Source: Myxococcales bacterium
GTDB lineage: Bacteria; Myxococcota; B64-G9
Reading direction: 5' to 3'
Assembly: GCA_027031935.1 (NCBI GenBank)
Contig: JALVPF010000173.1
Coordinates: 1-42,067 of the forward strand
Length of the DNA: 42,067 bases
The translations under genes and the position numbers were made by a program. The notes beneath the pieces were generated by a model, which saw only the letters and a program-made list of their open reading frames with translations, searched no databases and was not told the DNA's origin. This document shows, piece after piece, positions 6,884-28,427 of the stretch. The stretch's first letter is position 1. Each line of letters opens with the position of its first letter.

Positions 6884-7852
6884 ATGGGTAATGCATTGAT
6901 AGTTGCTGAGTACAAGGGCGACGCGCTGAAGAAGGTGACCCGCGCTGCTTTTACTTTTGCAAAGGAATACACCACCAAGCAAGGCGGAGAGTTTCACATT
7001 CTGGTCTTGGGGCATAACCTGGGTGCGGTCGTGGATGAGTGCATGAGTTACGGTGCTGCCAAGGTTCACGTGGCTGACAACGAGAGCCTGGCCAACTACC
7101 TGGCGGAGAGCTATGCACAGGTGGTGGCACAGGTGGCCAAGGACTCTGGCGCCGAAGTGGTTGGTGCCACGGCTTCTGCCATGACCAAGGACCTGATGCC
7201 CAGAGTGGCTGCCAAGCTTGATGCAGGAATGGCCTCGGACATCATCGGCATCTCCGACGAGGGTTATTTCGACAGACCTGTTTGGGCTGGCAATGCCATC
7301 GTGTCCGCCGAGATCACCTCACCCGTCAAGGTTGTCACGGTGCGAGGTACGGATTTCGAGCCTGCTCCAAAGGGAGACGCAGGCGGTGAGAAGGTGGAAG
7401 TCACCGTGTCCGTGGATTTGGGCAGCCTGAAGAAACGCTTCGAGCAATTCGAAGAGGTCAAGTCTGACAGGCCGGAGCTGACCGAGGCCTCCATCATAGT
7501 CACCGGTGGTCGTGGAACCAAGGGTGACGAGGGTTTCAAGCTGGTGGAGGGTTTGGCTGACCTTCTGGGCGCAGCGGTGGGCGCAACGCGTGCTGCCGTG
7601 GACGCAGGGTGGGTTCCCAACGACCTGCAGGTGGGACAGACTGGAAAAGTGGTAGCCCCCGACCTCTACGTGGCAGCAGGGGTGTCCGGTGCCATTCAGC
7701 ATCTTGCCGGCATGAAGGGCTCCAAGACCATAGTTGCCATCAACAAGGACGAGGAAGCCCCCATTTTCCAGGTGGCAGACTATGGCCTGGTGGCCGATCT
7801 CTTCAAGGCCCTGCCTGAGATGGTTGAAGAAGTGAAAAAGGCCAAAGGCTGA
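6884..7852 (+). CDS. etfA: Electron transfer flavoprotein alpha subunit
   Basis: RPELTEA, GGRG, GATRAAVDAG, QVGQTGKVVAP, GVSGAIQHLAGM. Start moved to ATG 6884, which follows AAGGAGG. Confidence 0.95.
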   Translation: MGNALIVAEYKGDALKKVTRAAFTFAKEYTTKQGGEFHILVLGHNLGAVVDECMSYGAAKVHVADNESLANYLAESYAQVVAQVAKDSGAEVVGATASAMTKDLMPRVAAKLDAGMASDIIGISDEGYFDRPVWAGNAIVSAEITSPVKVVTVRGTDFEPAPKGDAGGEKVEVTVSVDLGSLKKRFEQFEEVKSDRPELTEASIIVTGGRGTKGDEGFKLVEGLADLLGAAVGATRAAVDAGWVPNDLQVGQTGKVVAPDLYVAAGVSGAIQHLAGMKGSKTIVAINKDEEAPIFQVADYGLVADLFKALPEMVEEVKKAKG

Positions 7853-7886
7853 TCCAATATAATCTGTAATAGATATTCATGATTAT

Positions 7887-7913
7887 GGTCCTCCCCTGGG
7901 AGGACCTTTTTTT
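7887..7913 (+). terminator. Rho-independent terminator after etfA
   Basis: GGTCCTCC-cctg-GGAGGACC hairpin followed by T7. Confidence 0.85.
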
Positions 7914-7920
7914 ATCGGTG

Positions 7921-7948
7921 GGACACTTCGCAAGGGACACTTGGCAAG
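7921..7948. repeat. 14-bp tandem direct repeat
   Basis: GGACACTTCGCAAG followed by GGACACTTGGCAAG (13/14 identical). Confidence 0.8.
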
Positions 7949-8025
7949 CCTGGACAAAAACCATAAGCAGTGGCAGCATGCCATTTCTGAATTCAGAGAT
8001 AATGCTTGTACGGGAGAAAGGGTTT

Positions 8026-8931
8026 TTGAAACTCCAATACTCGATGCTTCGTATCCTTCTGTTGCTTTTAGTTCTTGAGGGCCAGGCCTTTGCCCTTGTA
8101 GGGGTGCACATCGAAAACCGGGTTGGGTGTCTGGATGATGCCGACCTGGAGAAGAGACTGGATATACTGGTAAAAAATAAGGGCGGGGATGGTCATTTGT
8201 CGGTCAGTGTGGTGATTGCACCGGCCATAGATGGCCTTGTGTTATCCCTACGTGTGGTCATGAATGCAACAGGCGAGGTGGTCCTGGATCGTACCTTCCG
8301 GCTCAAGCCGGAGGATTGTCCAGGTGCCAACGATCTGCTGTCTGTGGTGCTCGAGCAATTTCTTTCTACATTTCCACTCGAGGAATGGATACTCAAGACC
8401 AGCCCACCCAAACCACCTCCACCTGAAAAGATCTTTCTCACACGAGATGTGGCTGAACTTGCGGGTTCGGCTTCTGTTGCAGTGGACAGTCGTTGGCCAT
8501 ATCCGAGCGCTGATCTGGAACTTGCTGTGTCCATAGACGTGGGCTCTTGCCGCAATCGTCTCATAGGTAGCACGGCTATACGGATTGGCATTCCCCACGA
8601 GTTGGGTAGCGGCAGCTATCTCGAAAGCATGGGAATGCTGGGAGTAGGGTGGCGATATGCAAGCCGTGGGTGGATGCTGAGAGTGGAGGCGCGCACTGGA
8701 GGCCTGCTCGTCTCAGGATATGGTTATAACACAAACTACCACCGCTGGTTGCTATGGGTAGAAGCCCAGGTGGGCATGATGTGGCAATGGAAAGGCATTT
8801 TACTGGGACCCCAGATTGCGGTGAGCCCTCTTTGGCACCAGGTTGAGACCACAGCCGGTGTCAACAGGCAACTGCCTTGGTTGCGTGTGGGCGTAGTTAT
8901 AGGTTTTCCTTTCTGGTACAAGAAATTTTGA
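8026..8931 (+). CDS. Secreted hypothetical protein: N-terminal Cys-pair domain, Pro linker, predicted C-terminal beta-barrel (start 8026 TTG or 8044 ATG)
   Basis: Signal peptide MLRILLLLLVLEGQAFA, PPKPPPP linker, alternating strands, aromatic C-terminus (FWYKKF). The ORF-track start at 7879 would overlap the etfA terminator. Confidence 0.6.
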   Translation: MKLQYSMLRILLLLLVLEGQAFALVGVHIENRVGCLDDADLEKRLDILVKNKGGDGHLSVSVVIAPAIDGLVLSLRVVMNATGEVVLDRTFRLKPEDCPGANDLLSVVLEQFLSTFPLEEWILKTSPPKPPPPEKIFLTRDVAELAGSASVAVDSRWPYPSADLELAVSIDVGSCRNRLIGSTAIRIGIPHELGSGSYLESMGMLGVGWRYASRGWMLRVEARTGGLLVSGYGYNTNYHRWLLWVEAQVGMMWQWKGILLGPQIAVSPLWHQVETTAGVNRQLPWLRVGVVIGFPFWYKKF

Positions 8932-8955
8932 AGGTTTTCCGCTTTGCCGGGAAAT
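8929..8955 (+). promoter_or_regulatory. Candidate ECF promoter, copy 1
   Basis: TGAAGGTTTTC-N9-GGGAAAT directly upstream of the ECF sigma gene; matches the copy at 10401. Confidence 0.55.
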
Positions 8956-8988
8956 CATAGTTAATGGTCAACGATCCTGAGTCTTAAA

Positions 8989-9528
8989 ATGAGTGAATCG
9001 GCGAGCGAGGAACTGGATGTTGGAAGTCTCTACGTGGAGTATGGATCGTTTTTATCCCGTACTATCGAGCGTTTGACAGGCGCTGGCGGACACGTTGACG
9101 ATTTATTGCAAGAGACCTTTGTTACCGCCTTTCGCAAGCGCAAGAGCTACGATAGGACACGGGCAGCCCCTGCAACATGGTTATATGGTATCGCCGCCAA
9201 CTTGTGTCGGCGCCACCATCGCTCCGCCAAACGTCTGGCCACCCTGAAGGCGAAGTATGTGCTGGAACAAGTCGGCCAAGCGCAAACAAGGCCCGATCAG
9301 CTGGCAGAAGAAGCGCAACGGGTTCAGATGGTTTACGAGGTGATGCAGAAATTGCCTTTCAAACAGAGGGAAGTGTTCAGTCTGTATGAACTGGAGGCCC
9401 TTGATGGCAACGCCATTGCGTCCATGCTCGGAATACCTCTAGGGACGGTGTGGACGCGCTTACATCATGCCCGCCAGAGGTTTGCCAAGCTTATGCAAAC
9501 CAGGCTTGAAAAAGAGGGACTGGCATGA
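8989..9528 (+). CDS. ECF-family RNA polymerase sigma factor
   Basis: Region 2 (DDLLQETFV, TWLYGIAAN) and region 4 (LPFKQREVF..ELE, IASMLGIPLGTVWTRLHHAR); 179 aa. Confidence 0.93.
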   Translation: MSESASEELDVGSLYVEYGSFLSRTIERLTGAGGHVDDLLQETFVTAFRKRKSYDRTRAAPATWLYGIAANLCRRHHRSAKRLATLKAKYVLEQVGQAQTRPDQLAEEAQRVQMVYEVMQKLPFKQREVFSLYELEALDGNAIASMLGIPLGTVWTRLHHARQRFAKLMQTRLEKEGLA

Positions 9529-10394
9529 AAGAGATAGAAAATCCCGAAAGACTGATACACGATCCAAAGCTCGGCAAATGGCTTCGGCCGGCTGCAGATC
9601 GCATGTTGGAACCAGAACGTCTTTCCAGGTGCGCTCAGCTTATCCAGCAAAGGTTAGAGGAGACATCTCAAGCGAAAGGATCTTCCTGGTTTGACAGGAT
9701 TTTTTGGTCGCGCAGGATGATGCGGGCCGTGGTACCAGCTTTGCTCTTGATAAGTATATCCGTGGGCGCCACCTACCTGATCAGGGTCTTTCGCGAGCCT
9801 GAAAAGGTCAAGCCACCTGAGGCCAAAGCGGTGCTTGTGAAGATAAAGCACAAACCAAGACCCTTGCCCAGGCTGACTGATTTACCTGAACCACCAAAAC
9901 CGGATAAACCATCCAAGCTGGTGAGGAGAAGACCGAAAACATTAAAAGTGGCTCAAGTGCAAACCGAAGCAGCAGAAACGGTGGAATCCCATACCAGCCC
10001 CCAGAGTCAACTGCTTGAGCAACTTCGTCTGTTCAAAAAAGCCAAGTCGGCAGCAGATAGTGCTGATGTGGCTGGTGCTCTGTCTGCGCTCGACGAGTTG
10101 AAGCGCCAATTTCCCAAAGGTCCTCTTGGCCCGGAAGCAGGGCTGCTCAGGGCCAGGATTCTTTATCAAGCGGGTCATTTTCGGCAGGCGGCCCAATGCA
10201 TTGCTGCTTTGATCGATGATCCTTCCCTTGCTGGCAAAAAAGCGCATCTTTTCCGTCTATTGGGTGACTGCCATGTCCACCTGAAAGAGTGTGAAGCGGC
10301 GCGAGAGGCTTTTCGTCGTGCGTTGGGGCTTGGGCTCTCCGGCACAGAAGCCGATGAGGCAAGACGAGGAATAAAAAAATGCACCCGTCAGTAA
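9525..10394 (+). CDS. Single-TM protein with Pro/Lys linker and C-terminal TPR-like helices; probable anti-sigma factor
   Basis: ATGA overlap with the sigma gene; TM AVVPALLLISISVGATYLI; TPR-like ALDELKRQFPKGPLGPEAGLLRARILY and LLGDCHVHL...AREAFRRAL. Confidence 0.65.
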   Translation: MKEIENPERLIHDPKLGKWLRPAADRMLEPERLSRCAQLIQQRLEETSQAKGSSWFDRIFWSRRMMRAVVPALLLISISVGATYLIRVFREPEKVKPPEAKAVLVKIKHKPRPLPRLTDLPEPPKPDKPSKLVRRRPKTLKVAQVQTEAAETVESHTSPQSQLLEQLRLFKKAKSAADSADVAGALSALDELKRQFPKGPLGPEAGLLRARILYQAGHFRQAAQCIAALIDDPSLAGKKAHLFRLLGDCHVHLKECEAAREAFRRALGLGLSGTEADEARRGIKKCTRQ

Positions 10395-10400
10395 TTTTTT

Positions 10401-10427
10401 TGAAGGTTTTCTGTGTATCTGGGGAAT
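10401..10427 (+). promoter_or_regulatory. Candidate ECF promoter, copy 2
   Basis: TGAAGGTTTTC-N9-GGGGAAT in the gap before the RCC1 lipoprotein gene. Confidence 0.55.
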
Positions 10428-10460
10428 AAGCCATTAGACACAATAAACCTGGAGGAAAGA

Positions 10461-12944
10461 ATGCGTTTTATTATTGCCAGATATCATTGGATTTTTTCAA
10501 TAATTCTTCCACTTTTCCTGATGGCAGGCTGCGACACCGCTGTGGTGGGAGATGAACAATGTGGAAACGGGCTCCTGGACGACAAGGAGCTGTGTGATGT
10601 GGGAATTGCCTCAGGGCAAGGTAGATGTCCTGAGGAAGAAGATTGTGATGATGGATCTGATTGCACCATAGATAGCCTGTCAGGGCAGGATTGTATGGCC
10701 AGGTGTGAGCATGAAGCGATCACCGTGTTTGTTGACGATGACGGTTGTTGTCCTGAAGGTGCAGGGCCGGAGGATGATTCTGATTGTGGCGCTTGCGAAA
10801 ATGAGTGTTCAGCCTCAGGGGACACCGAGTGTACGGACGGTAGCTTGAGAACTTGTCTTTCTGACCAAAGAGGATGTTTGTACTGGGGTGAGTATGTTGA
10901 TTGCCCGGACAAGGCCTGTGATGGGGATGTGTGCTCCGGTTGCACACCGGACTGTGCAAACATGGAGTGTGGCATGGATCCTGTCTGCGGCAGCAGTTGT
11001 GGAGAATGCAGCGATGGAAAAGAGTGCGAAGACGGTCAGTGCGTTTGTGTACCGGATACCACAACCGGCTGTTACGACGGGGATGTGTATCACTTTGATT
11101 CCTGTGGAAATCCAGGGGATAAGCTAACAGATTGCTCCTATGGCTGTAGTGATGGTCAGTGTGACAATTGTACACCAAACTGCAACGGCCTCGAATGCGG
11201 TCCGGATCCCGTTTGTGGTATAAGCTGTGGACAATGTGATGTCGGACAGGATTGTAATATGGCTGGTCAATGCATATGCGATGTGGATTATCATTTATGC
11301 GGTGACAGTTGTGTCTCGGATTACTCTACACAAAGCTGCGGACAGAGTTGTACCTCCTGCCCTGATGATCCCCATGGCGTTGCCAACTGCGATGGCGAAA
11401 GCTGTGGCATAGACTGCGATGCTGACTATCACCTTTGCAATGGAACTTGTGCGTCAGATTATTCACCACAGAGCTGTGGACAAAGTTGCACGACCTGCCC
11501 TGATGATCCCAATGGCACTGCCACCTGCGATGGTACGAGTTGCGGTATTGAGTGCAACGCAGACTATCATCTTTGCAACGGAACTTGTGCATCAGATTAT
11601 TCAACTGAGAGCTGCGGACAGAGTTGTACTCCCTGCCCTGATGATGATCCCAATGGCGCTGCCACCTGCGATGGTACAAGTTGCGGTATTGAGTGCAACG
11701 CAGACTATCACCTTTGCAATGGCAGTTGTTTGTCAAGCCAAAGCACTGACCACTGTGGAAATCTCTGCAGTCCTTGTCCGGGTACGGAGCATGGCGCTGC
11801 AACCTGCGAAAATAATACCTGTGGGGTTGTTTGTGATGATGGATTTTTAAAAATAGACAATACCTGCCTTGCGGTATCTTCTATATCGCTTGGTAACGAA
11901 CATACATGTGCTCTTACCTCAACTGGCGGTGTAAAGTGCTGGGGTTATAACCTTAGCGGCCAACTCGGAGACGGATCTACCACAGTTAGGTACACGCCAG
12001 TGGACGTAGTTGGCTTGAGTTCCGGAGTAGTTGCGATCTCGGCAGGTTTTGAGCACACATGTGCTCTCACCTCAACTGGCAGTGTAAAGTGCTGGGGTTA
12101 TAACCTTAGCGGCCAACTCGGAGACGGTACAAGCACAGTTAGGCACACGCCAGTGGACATAGTTGGCTTGAGTTCAAATGTACAATTTGTCGCTATTTCG
12201 GGTGGTGGCTACCACACATGTGCTCTTACCTCAACTGGCGGTGTAAAGTGCTGGGGGGCTAATTATGACGGCCAACTTGGAGACGGATCTGACACAAATA
12301 GGTACACACCGGTGGACGTAGTTGGCTTGAGTTCCGGAGTAGTTGCGATCTCGGCAGGTTCTGAACACACATGTGCTCTTACCTCAACTGGTGGTTTAAA
12401 GTGCTGGGGGAATAATTCTTTCGGCGAACTCGGCGACGGATCTAACACAGTTAGGTACACGCCAGTGGACGTAGTTGGCTTGAGTTCCGGAGTAGTTGCG
12501 ATCTCGGCAGGTTTCGAACACACATGTGCTCTTATCTCAACTGGCGGTGTAAAGTGCTGGGGGGCTAACTATCACGGCCAACTTGGAGATGGTACTAGCA
12601 TCAATAGAGTTACTCCAGTGGATGTGTTTGGTTTGACATCAGGAGTATCTGCTGTTTCAGCTACTGGTGTTCACACATGTGTTCTTACCTCAACTGGCGG
12701 TGTAAAGTGCTGGGGGGCTAACTATCACGGCCAACTTGGAGATGGTACTAGCATCAATAGAGTCACTCCAGTGGACGTATTTGGCTTGAGTTCAGGAGAA
12801 GTTGCTGTCTCGATTGGTACTGAGCATTCTTGTGCGATTACAAGCACGGGCAGCTGCATGTGTTGGGGATTTAATGAAGAGGGTCCAATTGGAGACGGCA
12901 CAACAGCTGACAGACACACTCCAGTATTTGTTCTGGATCCCTAA
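10461..12944 (+). CDS. Cys-rich lipoprotein with C-terminal RCC1/BLIP-II-like 7-bladed beta-propeller
   Basis: SD GGAGG then ATG 10461; lipobox LMAG-C; Cys-rich stalk; seven H[TS]C...KCWG.N..GQLGDG...TPV blades. Confidence 0.85.
11278..11832 (+). repeat. About four tandem 138-bp (46-aa) Cys-rich repeats
   Basis: Unit [35 protein letters not shown]. Copy 3 has an extra Asp codon and copy 4 is divergent. Confidence 0.85.
11871..12941 (+). repeat. Seven RCC1-like blade repeats of about 50 aa, highly similar at DNA level
   Basis: Recurrent ACATGTGCTCTTACCTCAACTGGCGGTGTAAAGTGCTGGGG and TTGGCTTGAGTTCCGGAGTAGTTGCGATCTCGGCAGGTT. Confidence 0.9.
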
Positions 12945-13160: not shown

Positions 13161-13373
13161 AACAAAAGTCGATTGAAAAACAAGGGGTTAATTTTACTCA
13201 TTTGAAGTGTGCTCCAGATTGGTTCAACTAACTCGGAGCGTACTCCAAATCAGTTTAATATGCTTTCTAGCCAGTGCTCTCGATATTTATCTTTATGGAG
13301 CGCGAGCGAGAATGGAAATCCGGCGATGTGTGATTCTTGCCTACCTGGTGCAAGTCATGGTAAACCAGTTGAT

Positions 13374-14930
13374 ATGGCTGACTGGAATGAACTCTCGGAC
13401 TTGATGGTCATCAAGCGCCTTGCCCAGATAATCAACAATCGTTGGGGACTGGGGCTGGGGTTTGCAGACGCGGAGGGAAAGCTGGCCAAGGGGCCTGGCC
13501 TGGATCGCCTGGCCACATCCAGGCCTGTGTGCGATCTGCTGAAGTCTGTTCCAATGGGCAGGGCGCGGTGTGAAGCCGTGGCAGGCATGATAAACAAACA
13601 GCATGAAGAGGCGGGCGCGCCGGATGGACCAGCTTGTATACTGTGTCATGCCGGACTTTCAGAGTTTTACGTGCCGGTGCAGGTGGAAGGTGAGAAGCAG
13701 GGTCTCATTTTGGCAGGGGGTTTTCTGCGGGAAAAAGACCTGGAAGAACAAATAGACGAAGTGCTGCAGAGATGTGCAGATCTCCCGGTGGCCAAGGCCG
13801 AGCTGCGTCGCGCGTGCAAGAAAAGCCCCATCCTGAGCGCGGAATCAGAGGACTACATATCGGATTTGCTGGAGCTGGTGGTCAAGGAGATCTTTGTCTA
13901 CCAGGAGGAGGTTTCACGCAAGGAGCGAAGACTGGATCGGCTCACCAAGGAGATGGCCGAGAGGTCCAGCTATGGTCAGATAATCGGAAAGAGTGCTCCC
14001 ATGAGGGAGCTTTATCAGCTGCTGGACAGGGTTTCGGGTACAGATTCCACCGTATTGATCATGGGGGAAAATGGTACTGGAAAAGAACTGGTGGCCAGGG
14101 CCGTGCATTTCAATTCCAAACGCAAGGATAAGCCCTTTGTGGTTCAGAACTGCTCCGCTTTCAATGACAACCTCTTGGACTCGGAGCTTTTCGGTCACGC
14201 CAGGGGAGCTTTTACCGGCGCGGTGGGCTCCAAAAAGGGCCTCTTCGAAGTTGCTGACAAGGGCACTTTTTTTCTCGATGAAGTTGGAGAGATGAGCCCG
14301 TCTCTGCAGGTGAAACTGCTGCGTATATTGCAGGAGGGTACCTTCATTCCGGTAGGTTCCACAATGGAACGAAAGGTGGATGTCAGGATCATCGCTGCGA
14401 CAAACCGCAACCTCAAGCACATGGTGGAACAGGGGACGTTCAGAGAGGACTTGTACTATAGACTCAATGTGGTCACCATCAACCTGCCCTCCCTCAAGGA
14501 CCGCAGAGATGACATTCCCTTGCTCGTGGAACACTTTTTGGAAAAACACTCAGGAGAAGGCAAGGTAAAAAAACTTTCTCCTGCCTGCCTGCAGCGCATG
14601 ATGGATTATCACTGGCCTGGGAACGTAAGAGAACTTGAAAACGAGATAGAGCGATTGATCGTCCTTCGCGGCAGTGACGAAGTCATAGGAGAGGAGTTTC
14701 TCTCCCCTAGGATAAGATATGACATTTATCCCACATCGAAAGATGCTTCTCCCGAAACAGCACCCACGCTTCCCCAGGCCATAGAACTCCTTGAGCGAAC
14801 GATGATCCTGGACCATCTCAAGAGGGCGAGGTGGAACAAGACAAAGGCAGCCAAGGCCCTGGGGATTTCGCGTCGTAACCTCATAAGAAAAGTTCAGGCT
14901 TTCAATCTCGACAGAAGAAAAAACCGGTAG
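13374..14930 (+). CDS. Sigma54-dependent enhancer-binding protein with N-terminal PocR-like sensor and Fis HTH
   Basis: CHAGL...VPVQVEG...GLILAGG (PocR-like), GENGTGKE, ELFGH..GAFTGA, FLDEVGE, FREDLYYRLNV, WPGNVRELEN, AAKALGISR. Start at 13374 is inferred. Confidence 0.9.
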   Translation: MADWNELSDLMVIKRLAQIINNRWGLGLGFADAEGKLAKGPGLDRLATSRPVCDLLKSVPMGRARCEAVAGMINKQHEEAGAPDGPACILCHAGLSEFYVPVQVEGEKQGLILAGGFLREKDLEEQIDEVLQRCADLPVAKAELRRACKKSPILSAESEDYISDLLELVVKEIFVYQEEVSRKERRLDRLTKEMAERSSYGQIIGKSAPMRELYQLLDRVSGTDSTVLIMGENGTGKELVARAVHFNSKRKDKPFVVQNCSAFNDNLLDSELFGHARGAFTGAVGSKKGLFEVADKGTFFLDEVGEMSPSLQVKLLRILQEGTFIPVGSTMERKVDVRIIAATNRNLKHMVEQGTFREDLYYRLNVVTINLPSLKDRRDDIPLLVEHFLEKHSGEGKVKKLSPACLQRMMDYHWPGNVRELENEIERLIVLRGSDEVIGEEFLSPRIRYDIYPTSKDASPETAPTLPQAIELLERTMILDHLKRARWNKTKAAKALGISRRNLIRKVQAFNLDRRKNR

Positions 14931-27419: not shown

Positions 27420-28427
27420 TCATCTTTCCATCATTACCCGATCGAAAACCTCCTTGATATCCATTATTGAAGTAAAGTCCACATCAACGGGATGTCTTGT
27501 TCCATGGGGGCTTATCAGGACTCCCTTGAAGAATTTTTGCTCGACCTGTTCGAGGTAAAACATGTACTGGCCCTGTACAACCTTGAACGGGATTTTCAAC
27601 CTGAGCCTGCCTTCGTGAGCCCATATCTCCGTATCAGACCCTGTCATCTCGAACAGATAGTCAATACGCAAAGGAGCTATGTCCTCATGTTGCTCCTGGG
27701 TTTGTTTTGTCGGCTGATCCGGTTCTATGGGCTGGGCTGGCTGAGGTGCCTGTTGTGACTGAGGCGATTCTTCGACCATCTCTGTCAGAATCATCACATC
27801 CGATGTTCCTTCGGCAAACCTGTCCCTGGCCTGGAGCTTTTCTTCCTTCTCGCCGTGTTGTTTTGTGACAAGGCTTTGTGTGAGCCTGGCCAACTCATCC
27901 AGGTCCTTGCGGGCATCATGGGTAAGCACGAGGGTTCTATCTTTTGGATCCATGTCCTGAAGGGATCTTCCATCAAGGGATATCAATAAAATGGAGCCTG
28001 GCATTTTCGATACCATCTCTATTTTGATATTCTGAAGCTCTGTGTTACCCCTGAGTCTAAGTATGTCGCGCTCCAGATCCAGGGTGATGCCCATGGCAGC
28101 AATTTCATCGCGCAGAGCCCCGAGACCACCGAGGGCTTGGCCGAGCATTTTTGCGACAGCTTCGCACAGGTGAGACGGATGGGTGAAGCCCAGTATGGAG
28201 AAGGCAGGGAGAGAGCGCAGGAACAAGGGCTGTATAATTTTTATTTTATCTCTGCCTGCTCCATAGATTTTCAGTCTTGTGATGGGCTGTCTCGTCAATG
28301 GGTGTACGAAGGTTCCCCCTACCACAGGGACCCATGCAAGCAAACCACGGCCAGGATCATCTATCTCGAAAGACTCCACCAGGGGCACCAATAGCGATCT
28401 GAGTTGCTGAAATTCTGGAATCGTCAT
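27420..28427 (-). CDS. Hypothetical protein, two globular parts joined by a Q/P linker
   Basis: 335-aa ORF starting 1 nt after the queH stop. Confidence 0.75.
   Translation of the reverse strand: MTIPEFQQLRSLLVPLVESFEIDDPGRGLLAWVPVVGGTFVHPLTRQPITRLKIYGAGRDKIKIIQPLFLRSLPAFSILGFTHPSHLCEAVAKMLGQALGGLGALRDEIAAMGITLDLERDILRLRGNTELQNIKIEMVSKMPGSILLISLDGRSLQDMDPKDRTLVLTHDARKDLDELARLTQSLVTKQHGEKEEKLQARDRFAEGTSDVMILTEMVEESPQSQQAPQPAQPIEPDQPTKQTQEQHEDIAPLRIDYLFEMTGSDTEIWAHEGRLRLKIPFKVVQGQYMFYLEQVEQKFFKGVLISPHGTRHPVDVDFTSIMDIKEVFDRVMMER

Follow-up and report, generated by a model that had tools for sequence, protein, structure and literature searches.

The sequence analysed here, referred to as the window, is a 42,067-nt stretch of DNA from a Myxococcales bacterium (contig JALVPF010000173.1 of assembly GCA_027031935.1). 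It contains a gene for an extracytoplasmic function (ECF) sigma factor at positions 8989-9528 and two forward-strand copies of one bipartite motif, located upstream of the sigma gene and of a lipoprotein gene. Each of these two sites, here named P1 and P2, is probably a promoter to which RNA polymerase is directed by the ECF sigma factor encoded between them (estimated probability of about 0.8). A preliminary description of the window had proposed that the two boxes of the motif are the -35 and -10 elements of ECF promoters serving the sigma factor and its target, and the comparative evidence presented below argues for this proposal.

The motif has the form TGAAGGTTTTC-N9-GGGRAAT, and its copies read TGAAGGTTTTC-cgctttgcc-GGGAAAT (site 1, 8929-8955) and TGAAGGTTTTC-tgtgtatct-GGGGAAT (site 2, 10401-10427). 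Both are preceded by a run of T (aaatttT... and aattttttT..., respectively), and both end 33 nt before an ATG, at 8989 and 10461, the latter with a GGAGG sequence 6 nt upstream. The sites are identical at 11 of 11 positions in the first box, six of seven in the second and three of nine in the spacer. A direct reading of the sequence thus agrees with the preliminary description on the shared motif, its identical spacing, the T-tracts and the distance to the start codons. One correction concerns site 1, which is not wholly intergenic since its first three bases are the TGA stop codon (8929-8931) of the upstream gene.

Within positions 8700-10700 the two sites form the longest direct repeat (30 nt, 8926-8955 and 10398-10427, 77% identity). 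When the 27-nt pattern was searched with up to three mismatches, these were the only matches in the window, against an expected number of 0.11, and exact copies of the motif were restricted to them both in the window and in the 5.5-Mb genome. The presence of only two copies in the genome and a spacer differing at six of nine positions would suit a chance similarity or a local duplication without function. Such an origin is hardly credible, as none of 100 shuffled sequences gave two matches, the similarity ends at the motif edges, and in loci that have 46-67% sigma identity and different spacers the same core occupies both syntenic positions.

Comparison of the window sites with 17 strict matches from other genomes (19 strict sites altogether) showed a family-wide conserved core, tttTGAAG-n-TTT ... 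GGGnAAtnA. The full consensus consists of an (A/T)-rich flank, TGAAG, any base, TTT, N11, GGG-n-A-A/C-t-n-A, N6 and a purine. Both boxes of the preliminary description were retained with refined limits, the first comprising the -35 element plus the T-tract, and the -10 element extending 2 nt past the second box, to a conserved A. Among the columns not fixed by the search pattern (numbered from the first base of TGAAG), T was found at positions 7, 8 and 9 in 14, 13 and 13 sites, indicating a T-tract proximal to the -35 element. G was found at position 23 in 15/19 sites, A at position 29 in 18/19 and a purine at position 36 in 19/19, and A or T occupied positions -4 and -3 in 19 and 18 sites, respectively. 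No conservation was detected among these sites in the spacer (positions 10-19), and position 27 was a T in only 11 of them.

Judged from these sequences, the sites are laid out as ECF promoters, each with a -35 element, a T-tract next to it and a -10 element, and are atypical in sequence. An AAC-N17-CGAC spacing is known from ECF promoters, and by count the AAx triplet and the -10 core lie equally far apart in the window. The purine at position 36 was read as the start site, and transcription is therefore predicted to start about 7 nt past the -10 element, near 8964 and 10436, each 25 nt before its ATG.

Seven loci with sigma factors 46-67% identical to that of the window (designated L009-L015) were retrieved from species-representative genomes by a scan in which all other matches were at 40% or less. 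They belong to metagenome-assembled genomes labelled Myxococcota, Kofleriaceae, 'Deltaproteobacteria' or Bdellovibrionales. Four more loci came from a metagenome scan, two of them duplicating L013. After removal of duplicates the comparison set comprised 21 non-window loci. The order of the genes for a beta-barrel protein, the sigma factor and a candidate anti-sigma factor is kept in the related loci.

The strict pattern TGAAG-N15-GGnnA[AC]n, searched on both strands of these 21 loci (199,004 positions), gave 18 matches: ten at the P1 position (40-110 nt before the sigma start), seven at the P2 position (1300-2050 nt after it) and one elsewhere. The reversed pattern gave no match in the same loci. 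This positional enrichment corresponds to binomial P values of 2e-17 for P1 and 8e-5 for P2, and it is not fully blind, since several related loci had already been viewed when the patterns for the search were drawn by eye.

Each of the first seven relatives (L009-L015) has a related site shortly before the sigma gene, and six of these sites fit a relaxed TGAAG-type pattern; in L013 a variant -35 element, TGTAAT, was seen by eye. A second copy lies about 1.4 kb downstream, before the third gene, in L009, L011, L012 and L013, and L014 has a second site with a diverged (relaxed) -35 element. No second site was found in L010, whose third gene and anti-sigma stop codon overlap (ATGA). Over the whole set, the conserved motif was present at P1 in 10 of the 21 loci in its strict form and in four more with a relaxed -35 element (L013, L092, L184 and L185). 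The upstream regions of orthologous modules had been put forward with the preliminary description as a place to check the motif, and with the hand-drawn pattern used here it does recur at both syntenic positions in other genomes. In L176/L188 (4582-4650) the -35 region has been locally duplicated in tandem, with another TGAAGGTCGTCG stretch 45 nt past the P2 site.

The boxes would likewise stay at fixed distances from the genes if they formed an operator, bound by a repressor or activator that travels with the module, rather than core promoter elements. This reading is very unlikely, given that the motif is direct and non-palindromic, with one fixed spacing and orientation, about 45-80 nt upstream of start codons. 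The only conserved members of the module are the barrel protein, the sigma factor, the anti-sigma factor and the lipoprotein, with no further DNA-binding protein among them. The succession of a -35 element, a T-tract, a -10 element and a conserved purine 7 nt on is also the layout of a core promoter.

The specificity of the motif was examined in the genome that contains the window (5,532,278 bases in 613 contigs, 92% complete; about 11 million positions scored). A loose pattern gave 54 matches against 23 in the reversed control and was mostly noise. A 26-nt pattern with up to two mismatches gave eight matches against three in the reversed control, with zero mismatches only at the two window sites. 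With a matrix built from the 17 non-window sites, which resembles the window motif by construction, P1 ranked first (36.4 bits) and P2 second (31.4 bits), the maximum of the reversed-genome control being 18.8 bits. The third-ranked match (24.4 bits), on contig C9, precedes a paralogous ECF sigma gene by 46 nt. Among the 13 ECF-like genes of the genome, only the window sigma gene and this paralogue had an upstream score above 20 bits. These searches suggest an apparent regulon of two promoters, and further members could be located in the unassembled part of the genome. A match on contig C301 (21.9 bits) was rejected as a regulon member; it lies inside a 521-aa reading frame, scores slightly above the control maximum and is probably due to chance.

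The C9 module (~628-2883) resembles that of the window in part, with a barrel-like gene ending at 620, the site TGAAGGTTTT-N10-GGCAACC at 628 and a sigma gene at 674-1270 (32% identity to the window sigma factor), followed by a zinc-finger-type anti-sigma gene at 1231-2883. Two distant paralogues, one on contig C125 of this genome (sigma gene at 27899-28357, minus strand) and the other in L184, have TGAAC-N15-GGCGACT upstream. Their motif has the layout of the window motif in a canonical AAC form, which suggests that the AAG/GGGnAA motif of the window derives from it; AAC at -35 occurs only in distant paralogues such as these two.

These paralogues bear on the alternative that P1 and P2 are promoters read by another sigma factor, either a housekeeping sigma-70-type factor or a paralogous ECF factor such as that of C9. 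In its favour, TTGAAG matches TTGACA at four of six positions, the C9 upstream site shares TGAAGGTTTT with the window sites, and the wider paralogue set carries the same layout. A sigma-70-type scan of positions 7700-10700 (hexamers TTGACA and TATAAT separated by 16-18 nt, the second required to have A as its second base and T as its sixth) returned one site (10435-10462), within chance, and neither P1 nor P2 was called. The conserved -10 bases are the GG at positions 21-22 and the A at position 25, not a TAnnnT hexamer. A housekeeping consensus would moreover be expected to be common in the genome, and only the two window sites, the C9 site and the one intragenic match exceed the control. As for the C9 paralogue, the -10 element of its site (GGCAACC) differs from those of the window, and the type of -10 element follows the adjacent sigma factor, as described next. 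Recognition by another sigma factor is thus unlikely.

In the seven loci with two sites, the variable -10 positions of P1 and P2 showed eight mismatches, against a mean of 15.3 under shuffled pairing, and only eight of 5040 permutations gave a value as low. The bases at positions 25-26 are AA at the sites of all ten sigma factors that have a long L3 loop and a site, and AC at those of all seven that have a short loop and a site, a partition that coincides with two clades of kindred loci and is therefore suggestive, since it may reflect shared descent. The short form results from a one-residue deletion in the loop before TWLYGIA, which comprises residues 53-64 or so of the window sigma factor and aligns with loop L3 of Mycobacterium tuberculosis SigL. 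According to bioRxiv 10.1101/381020, loop L3 is the modular determinant of the -10 'master nucleotide' specificity. These sequence patterns are suggestive of a -10 type that tracks the L3 loop of the adjacent sigma factor.

The gene downstream of P1 had been described as an ECF sigma gene, an assignment that holds, as its product contains Sigma70_r2 (residues 14-82) and Sigma70_r4_2 (residues 114-164) domains and has no region 1 or region 3 match. In NCBIfam it passes only the superfamily model TIGR02937 (sigma70-ECF; 74.2 bits, cut-off 42.9), and the subfamily and equivalog models listed for it are all far under their cut-offs. Among solved structures, its best relatives are chains deposited under the names of the factors sigma-H, sigma-E, SigW and SigL.

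In the product of the following gene (9525-10394), a short cytoplasmic N-terminal domain is followed by a single membrane helix, a linker rich in Pro and a tetratricopeptide repeat (TPR) domain in the periplasm. An alignment of 16 orthologues showed this architecture to be shared, with a cytoplasmic part of about 45 residues and a common N-terminal P-x-R-L motif, and no conserved Cys or His was detected in the first 60 alignment columns. Neither zf-HC2 nor any other Pfam anti-sigma family matched this product. A near-invariant Cys pair (residues 256 and 286) was observed in the periplasmic TPR domain of the 16 orthologues, and the two residues could form a disulfide.

Modelling of the sigma factor together with anti-sigma residues 1-62 gave a score of 0.80 in all three runs, the best of three controls reaching 0.01. 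Of 157 solved complexes 116 reach a score of 0.80, as do two of 215 mismatched pairs; these counts are rough because our own alignments were used. Contacts agreed between runs by at least 88%, and the predicted local distance difference test (pLDDT) score of the partner was at least 71. On the sigma factor, the contacts of the modelled segment fall within residues 12-48 (region 2) as well as 108-170 (region 4). The model supports binding of the sigma factor by the 9525-10394 product, its candidate cognate anti-sigma factor.

Besides the by-eye origin of the patterns, the construction of the matrix and the coincidence of loop types with clades, several observations weigh against P1 and P2 being promoters of this sigma factor. 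No recognisable P1 was found in seven of the 21 loci, the most distant ones (37-49% identity; L173, L177, L178, L179, L180, L181 and L182), and L177 and L179 have only the downstream P2-type site. A P1 displaced to a position upstream of the barrel gene was not detected in L177/L179-type loci either, with no matrix match of at least 12 bits in the extended loci. The -35 element has AAG where AAC is usual in both window sites and in all 19 strict sites (the G being required by the pattern), and no CGT is present in the -10 element of the window sites (GGGAAAT and GGGGAAT), the family consensus being GG-G-n-A-A/C-t-n-A. The first box is common to the C9 and window promoters (TGAAGGTTTT in both), so that cross-recognition by another sigma factor is possible. 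The score of the modelled complex may reflect likeness to solved sigma/anti-sigma complexes of other ECF families. Finally, no RNA run covering the stretch was found among the seven runs listed (two studies, six runs with all or part of the stretch, all as DNA contigs).

With P1 and P2 read as promoters of the window sigma factor, the mechanism would be that of a standard ECF circuit, with a membrane anti-sigma factor, release on an envelope signal, autoregulation through P1 and a dedicated target through P2. In the resting state the 9525-10394 membrane protein would hold the sigma factor via its short cytoplasmic N-terminal domain, and an envelope signal, sensed via the periplasmic TPR domain, would release it. 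Region 4 of the freed sigma factor would read the -35 element TGAAG, aided by the adjacent T-tract, and region 2 would read the -10 element GGGnAAtnA. P1 (core 8929-8957) would then drive the sigma/anti-sigma operon, resulting in positive autoregulation, and P2 (core 10401-10429) would drive the RCC1 lipoprotein gene. The freed sigma factor would in this way raise both its own level and that of the lipoprotein. The coordinates of these features are given in Table 1.

Table 1. Promoters and genes of the predicted ECF module in the window.
Feature	Coordinates	Strand	Evidence and details
Upstream neighbour, secreted protein with N-terminal alpha/beta domain and C-terminal small outer-membrane beta-barrel	8044..8931	+	AlphaFold2 model, mean pLDDT 87.3
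P1, predicted autoregulatory ECF promoter	8925..8964	+	A/T flank 8925-8928; -35 TGAAG 8929-8933; T-tract 8935-8938; -10 GGGAAATcA 8949-8957; predicted start ~8964 (A)
ECF (group 4) sigma factor gene, 179 aa	8989..9528	+	Pfam Sigma70_r2 2.3e-15, Sigma70_r4_2 2.8e-13
Candidate cognate anti-sigma factor gene, 289 aa	9525..10394	+	Start overlaps sigma stop codon (ATGA); Pfam TPR_16 residues 207-268
P2, predicted second promoter for the same sigma factor	10397..10436	+	A/T flank 10397-10400; -35 TGAAG 10401-10405; T-tract 10407-10410; -10 GGGGAATaA 10421-10429; predicted start ~10436 (A)
Predicted target gene, 827-aa lipoprotein with Cys-rich repeats and C-terminal RCC1 beta-propeller	10461..12944	+	Pfam WD40_RLD 1.6e-126, RCC1_2 8.1e-71; lipobox-like LMAGC

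The barrel gene upstream of P1 is syntenic in 17 of the 21 related loci (tblastn), and no Pfam or NCBIfam match was found for its product. Foldseek searches with the protein model showed a barrel like those of NspA, OmpA, Ail and OmpX (E values of 9e-6 to 4e-4), as well as weaker matches to TolB proteins, which were assigned by eye to the N-terminal part. The start of this gene was moved from 7879 to 8044. A hairpin (7887-7906, 8 pairs) followed by TTTTTTT was observed just past the gene ending at 7852, and a terminator-like hairpin inside the longest reading frame makes the start at 7879 probably wrong. Position 8044 was chosen because of this hairpin, a signal-peptide-like MLRILLLLLVLEGQAFA sequence and the beginning of orthologue matches at about residue 54. 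In many loci the stop codon of the barrel gene is the TGA of the -35 box, which leaves no terminator between the barrel and sigma genes.

The third gene of the related loci also encodes a lipoprotein, often with a beta-propeller. Eight of these proteins were compared, namely the window product (beginning of its gene, 10461-10560) and those of L009, L010, L011, L013, L014, L176 and L012. Behind the lipobox Cys, seven of them have similar residues (C-D/G/Q-x-x-V/L/I-V-G, often followed by a Cys), L012 being different. The remainder of the protein varies, with an RCC1 propeller in the window, L013 and L176, a Kelch-type propeller in L011, and no Pfam match in L009 and L012. The region right behind the lipoprotein gene (13209-14930) encodes a sigma-54-dependent activator that has a PocR sensory domain at its N-terminus. 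An Rfam scan of positions 7700-11000, with E values up to 1, returned only a sub-threshold match to mir-239 at 10872-10966 (19.9 bits, gathering score 49), which was taken as chance.

The distribution of the sigma gene is patchy. In the class of the window it was found in two of 18 genomes, including the window's own, and was missing from a genome of the same genus (92% complete); in a sample of the phylum it was found in 11 of 401 genomes (E up to 1e-35). Four paralogues were counted in genome G015 and three in genome G090. This pattern fits repeated loss, transfer or expansion of the module. What is new is the ECF clade itself, uncharacterised and patchily distributed, with an atypical promoter sequence and an anti-sigma factor that matches no known family.

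Taken jointly, and tentatively, these features might point to an undescribed ECF group of scattered, mostly uncultured Myxococcota-like lineages. Such a group would have its own promoter code, with AAG at -35, GGGnAA at -10, an invariant A read by loop L3 and a change of the -10 element to GAC with the one-residue L3 deletion. It would also have a fixed four-gene envelope module, made up of an OmpA-like barrel protein apparently with a TolB-N-like periplasmic domain, the sigma factor, a non-zinc TPR anti-sigma factor and a large beta-propeller lipoprotein; this combined proposal is doubtful as a whole. The N-terminal stretch of the lipoprotein after the lipidated Cys (C-D/G-x-x-V/L-V-G) might be a ligand of the TPR domain, in which case the target would feed back on its own regulator.

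The module leaves the current understanding of ECF regulation unchanged. It provides a set of sigma factor, promoter and anti-sigma factor predicted from sequence for an organism known only from metagenomes, and is compact enough for testing in a heterologous host. Since both boxes depart from the AAC/CGT consensus, the sigma/promoter pair could serve as an orthogonal switch. For the question of how ECF factors choose their -10 bases, a natural test case is offered by the L3 indel, which tracks the A-to-C change in the -10 element. The module would also bring together, in a single envelope signalling circuit, large beta-propeller lipoproteins and a barrel protein of the outer membrane that is conserved.

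Solved anti-sigma factors such as RseA and RsiW hold their sigma factors via both regions 2 and 4. The modelled N-terminal segment of the window anti-sigma factor contacts the same two regions, like the pairs in 1or7 (deposited as a sigma-E factor) and 5wuq (deposited as SigW), whose partners are RseA and RsiW. Unlike in these pairs, its N-terminal domain has only about 45 residues, and sequence searches of solved structures gave matches to the TPR part but none to this domain.

A literature search on ECF factors with an anti-sigma factor, a lipoprotein and RCC1 returned no paper. In the part of the PMC7826278 supplement that was searched, no ECF group combines a TGAAG -35 element with a GGGnAAT -10 element, which is not proof of absence. 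The myxobacterial groups in this part of the source are ECF210, ECF216 and ECF267, with no conserved motif described there for ECF210 and ECF267, and ECF253 is given a -35 element TTTGAAGGG and a -10 element CGTCTAA (PMC7826278).

Closer resemblances were found in two other groups, as far as they are covered by the same part of PMC7826278. ECF35 (SbrI/SbrR of Pseudomonas aeruginosa) is similar to the window module in the +1 position of an anti-sigma gene whose product has one membrane helix and, in some members, periplasmic tetratricopeptide repeats. It differs in its predicted promoter, with ACCC or TAACCCG at -35 and CGT or CGTCT at -10, compared with TGAAG ... GGGnAAT in the window. ECF33 is self-regulated, with a predicted -35 element TGAACCTTT and a -10 element that varies by subgroup, in which 'AC [is] usually conserved'. 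This variable -10 element with AC resembles the GGAGACT/GGCGACT of the short-loop relatives, and ECF33 also has a one-helix membrane anti-sigma factor encoded at +1. By description, ECF33 differs in anti-sigma factors that carry a zinc finger (that of the window has no zf-HC2 match and no conserved Cys or His in its cytoplasmic part) and in a C where the window -35 element has a G.

In PMC5758882, ECF promoters are characterised by an AAC motif at -35 and CGT at -10; Bacillus has tGAAACnTTTt, in which the T-tract beside the -35 element is functional. The window differs from the Bacillus subtilis promoters in having AAG instead of AAC at -35 and GGGnAAtnA instead of CGTA, CGTC or CGAC at -10 (PMC5758882). 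It is like the promoters of B. subtilis sigma-W, -X, -M and -V in being bipartite, with a T-tract just downstream of the -35 element, so that TGAAG-G-TTTT has the same layout; the operons of these four sigma factors are also autoregulated, as proposed here for the window module (PMC5758882).

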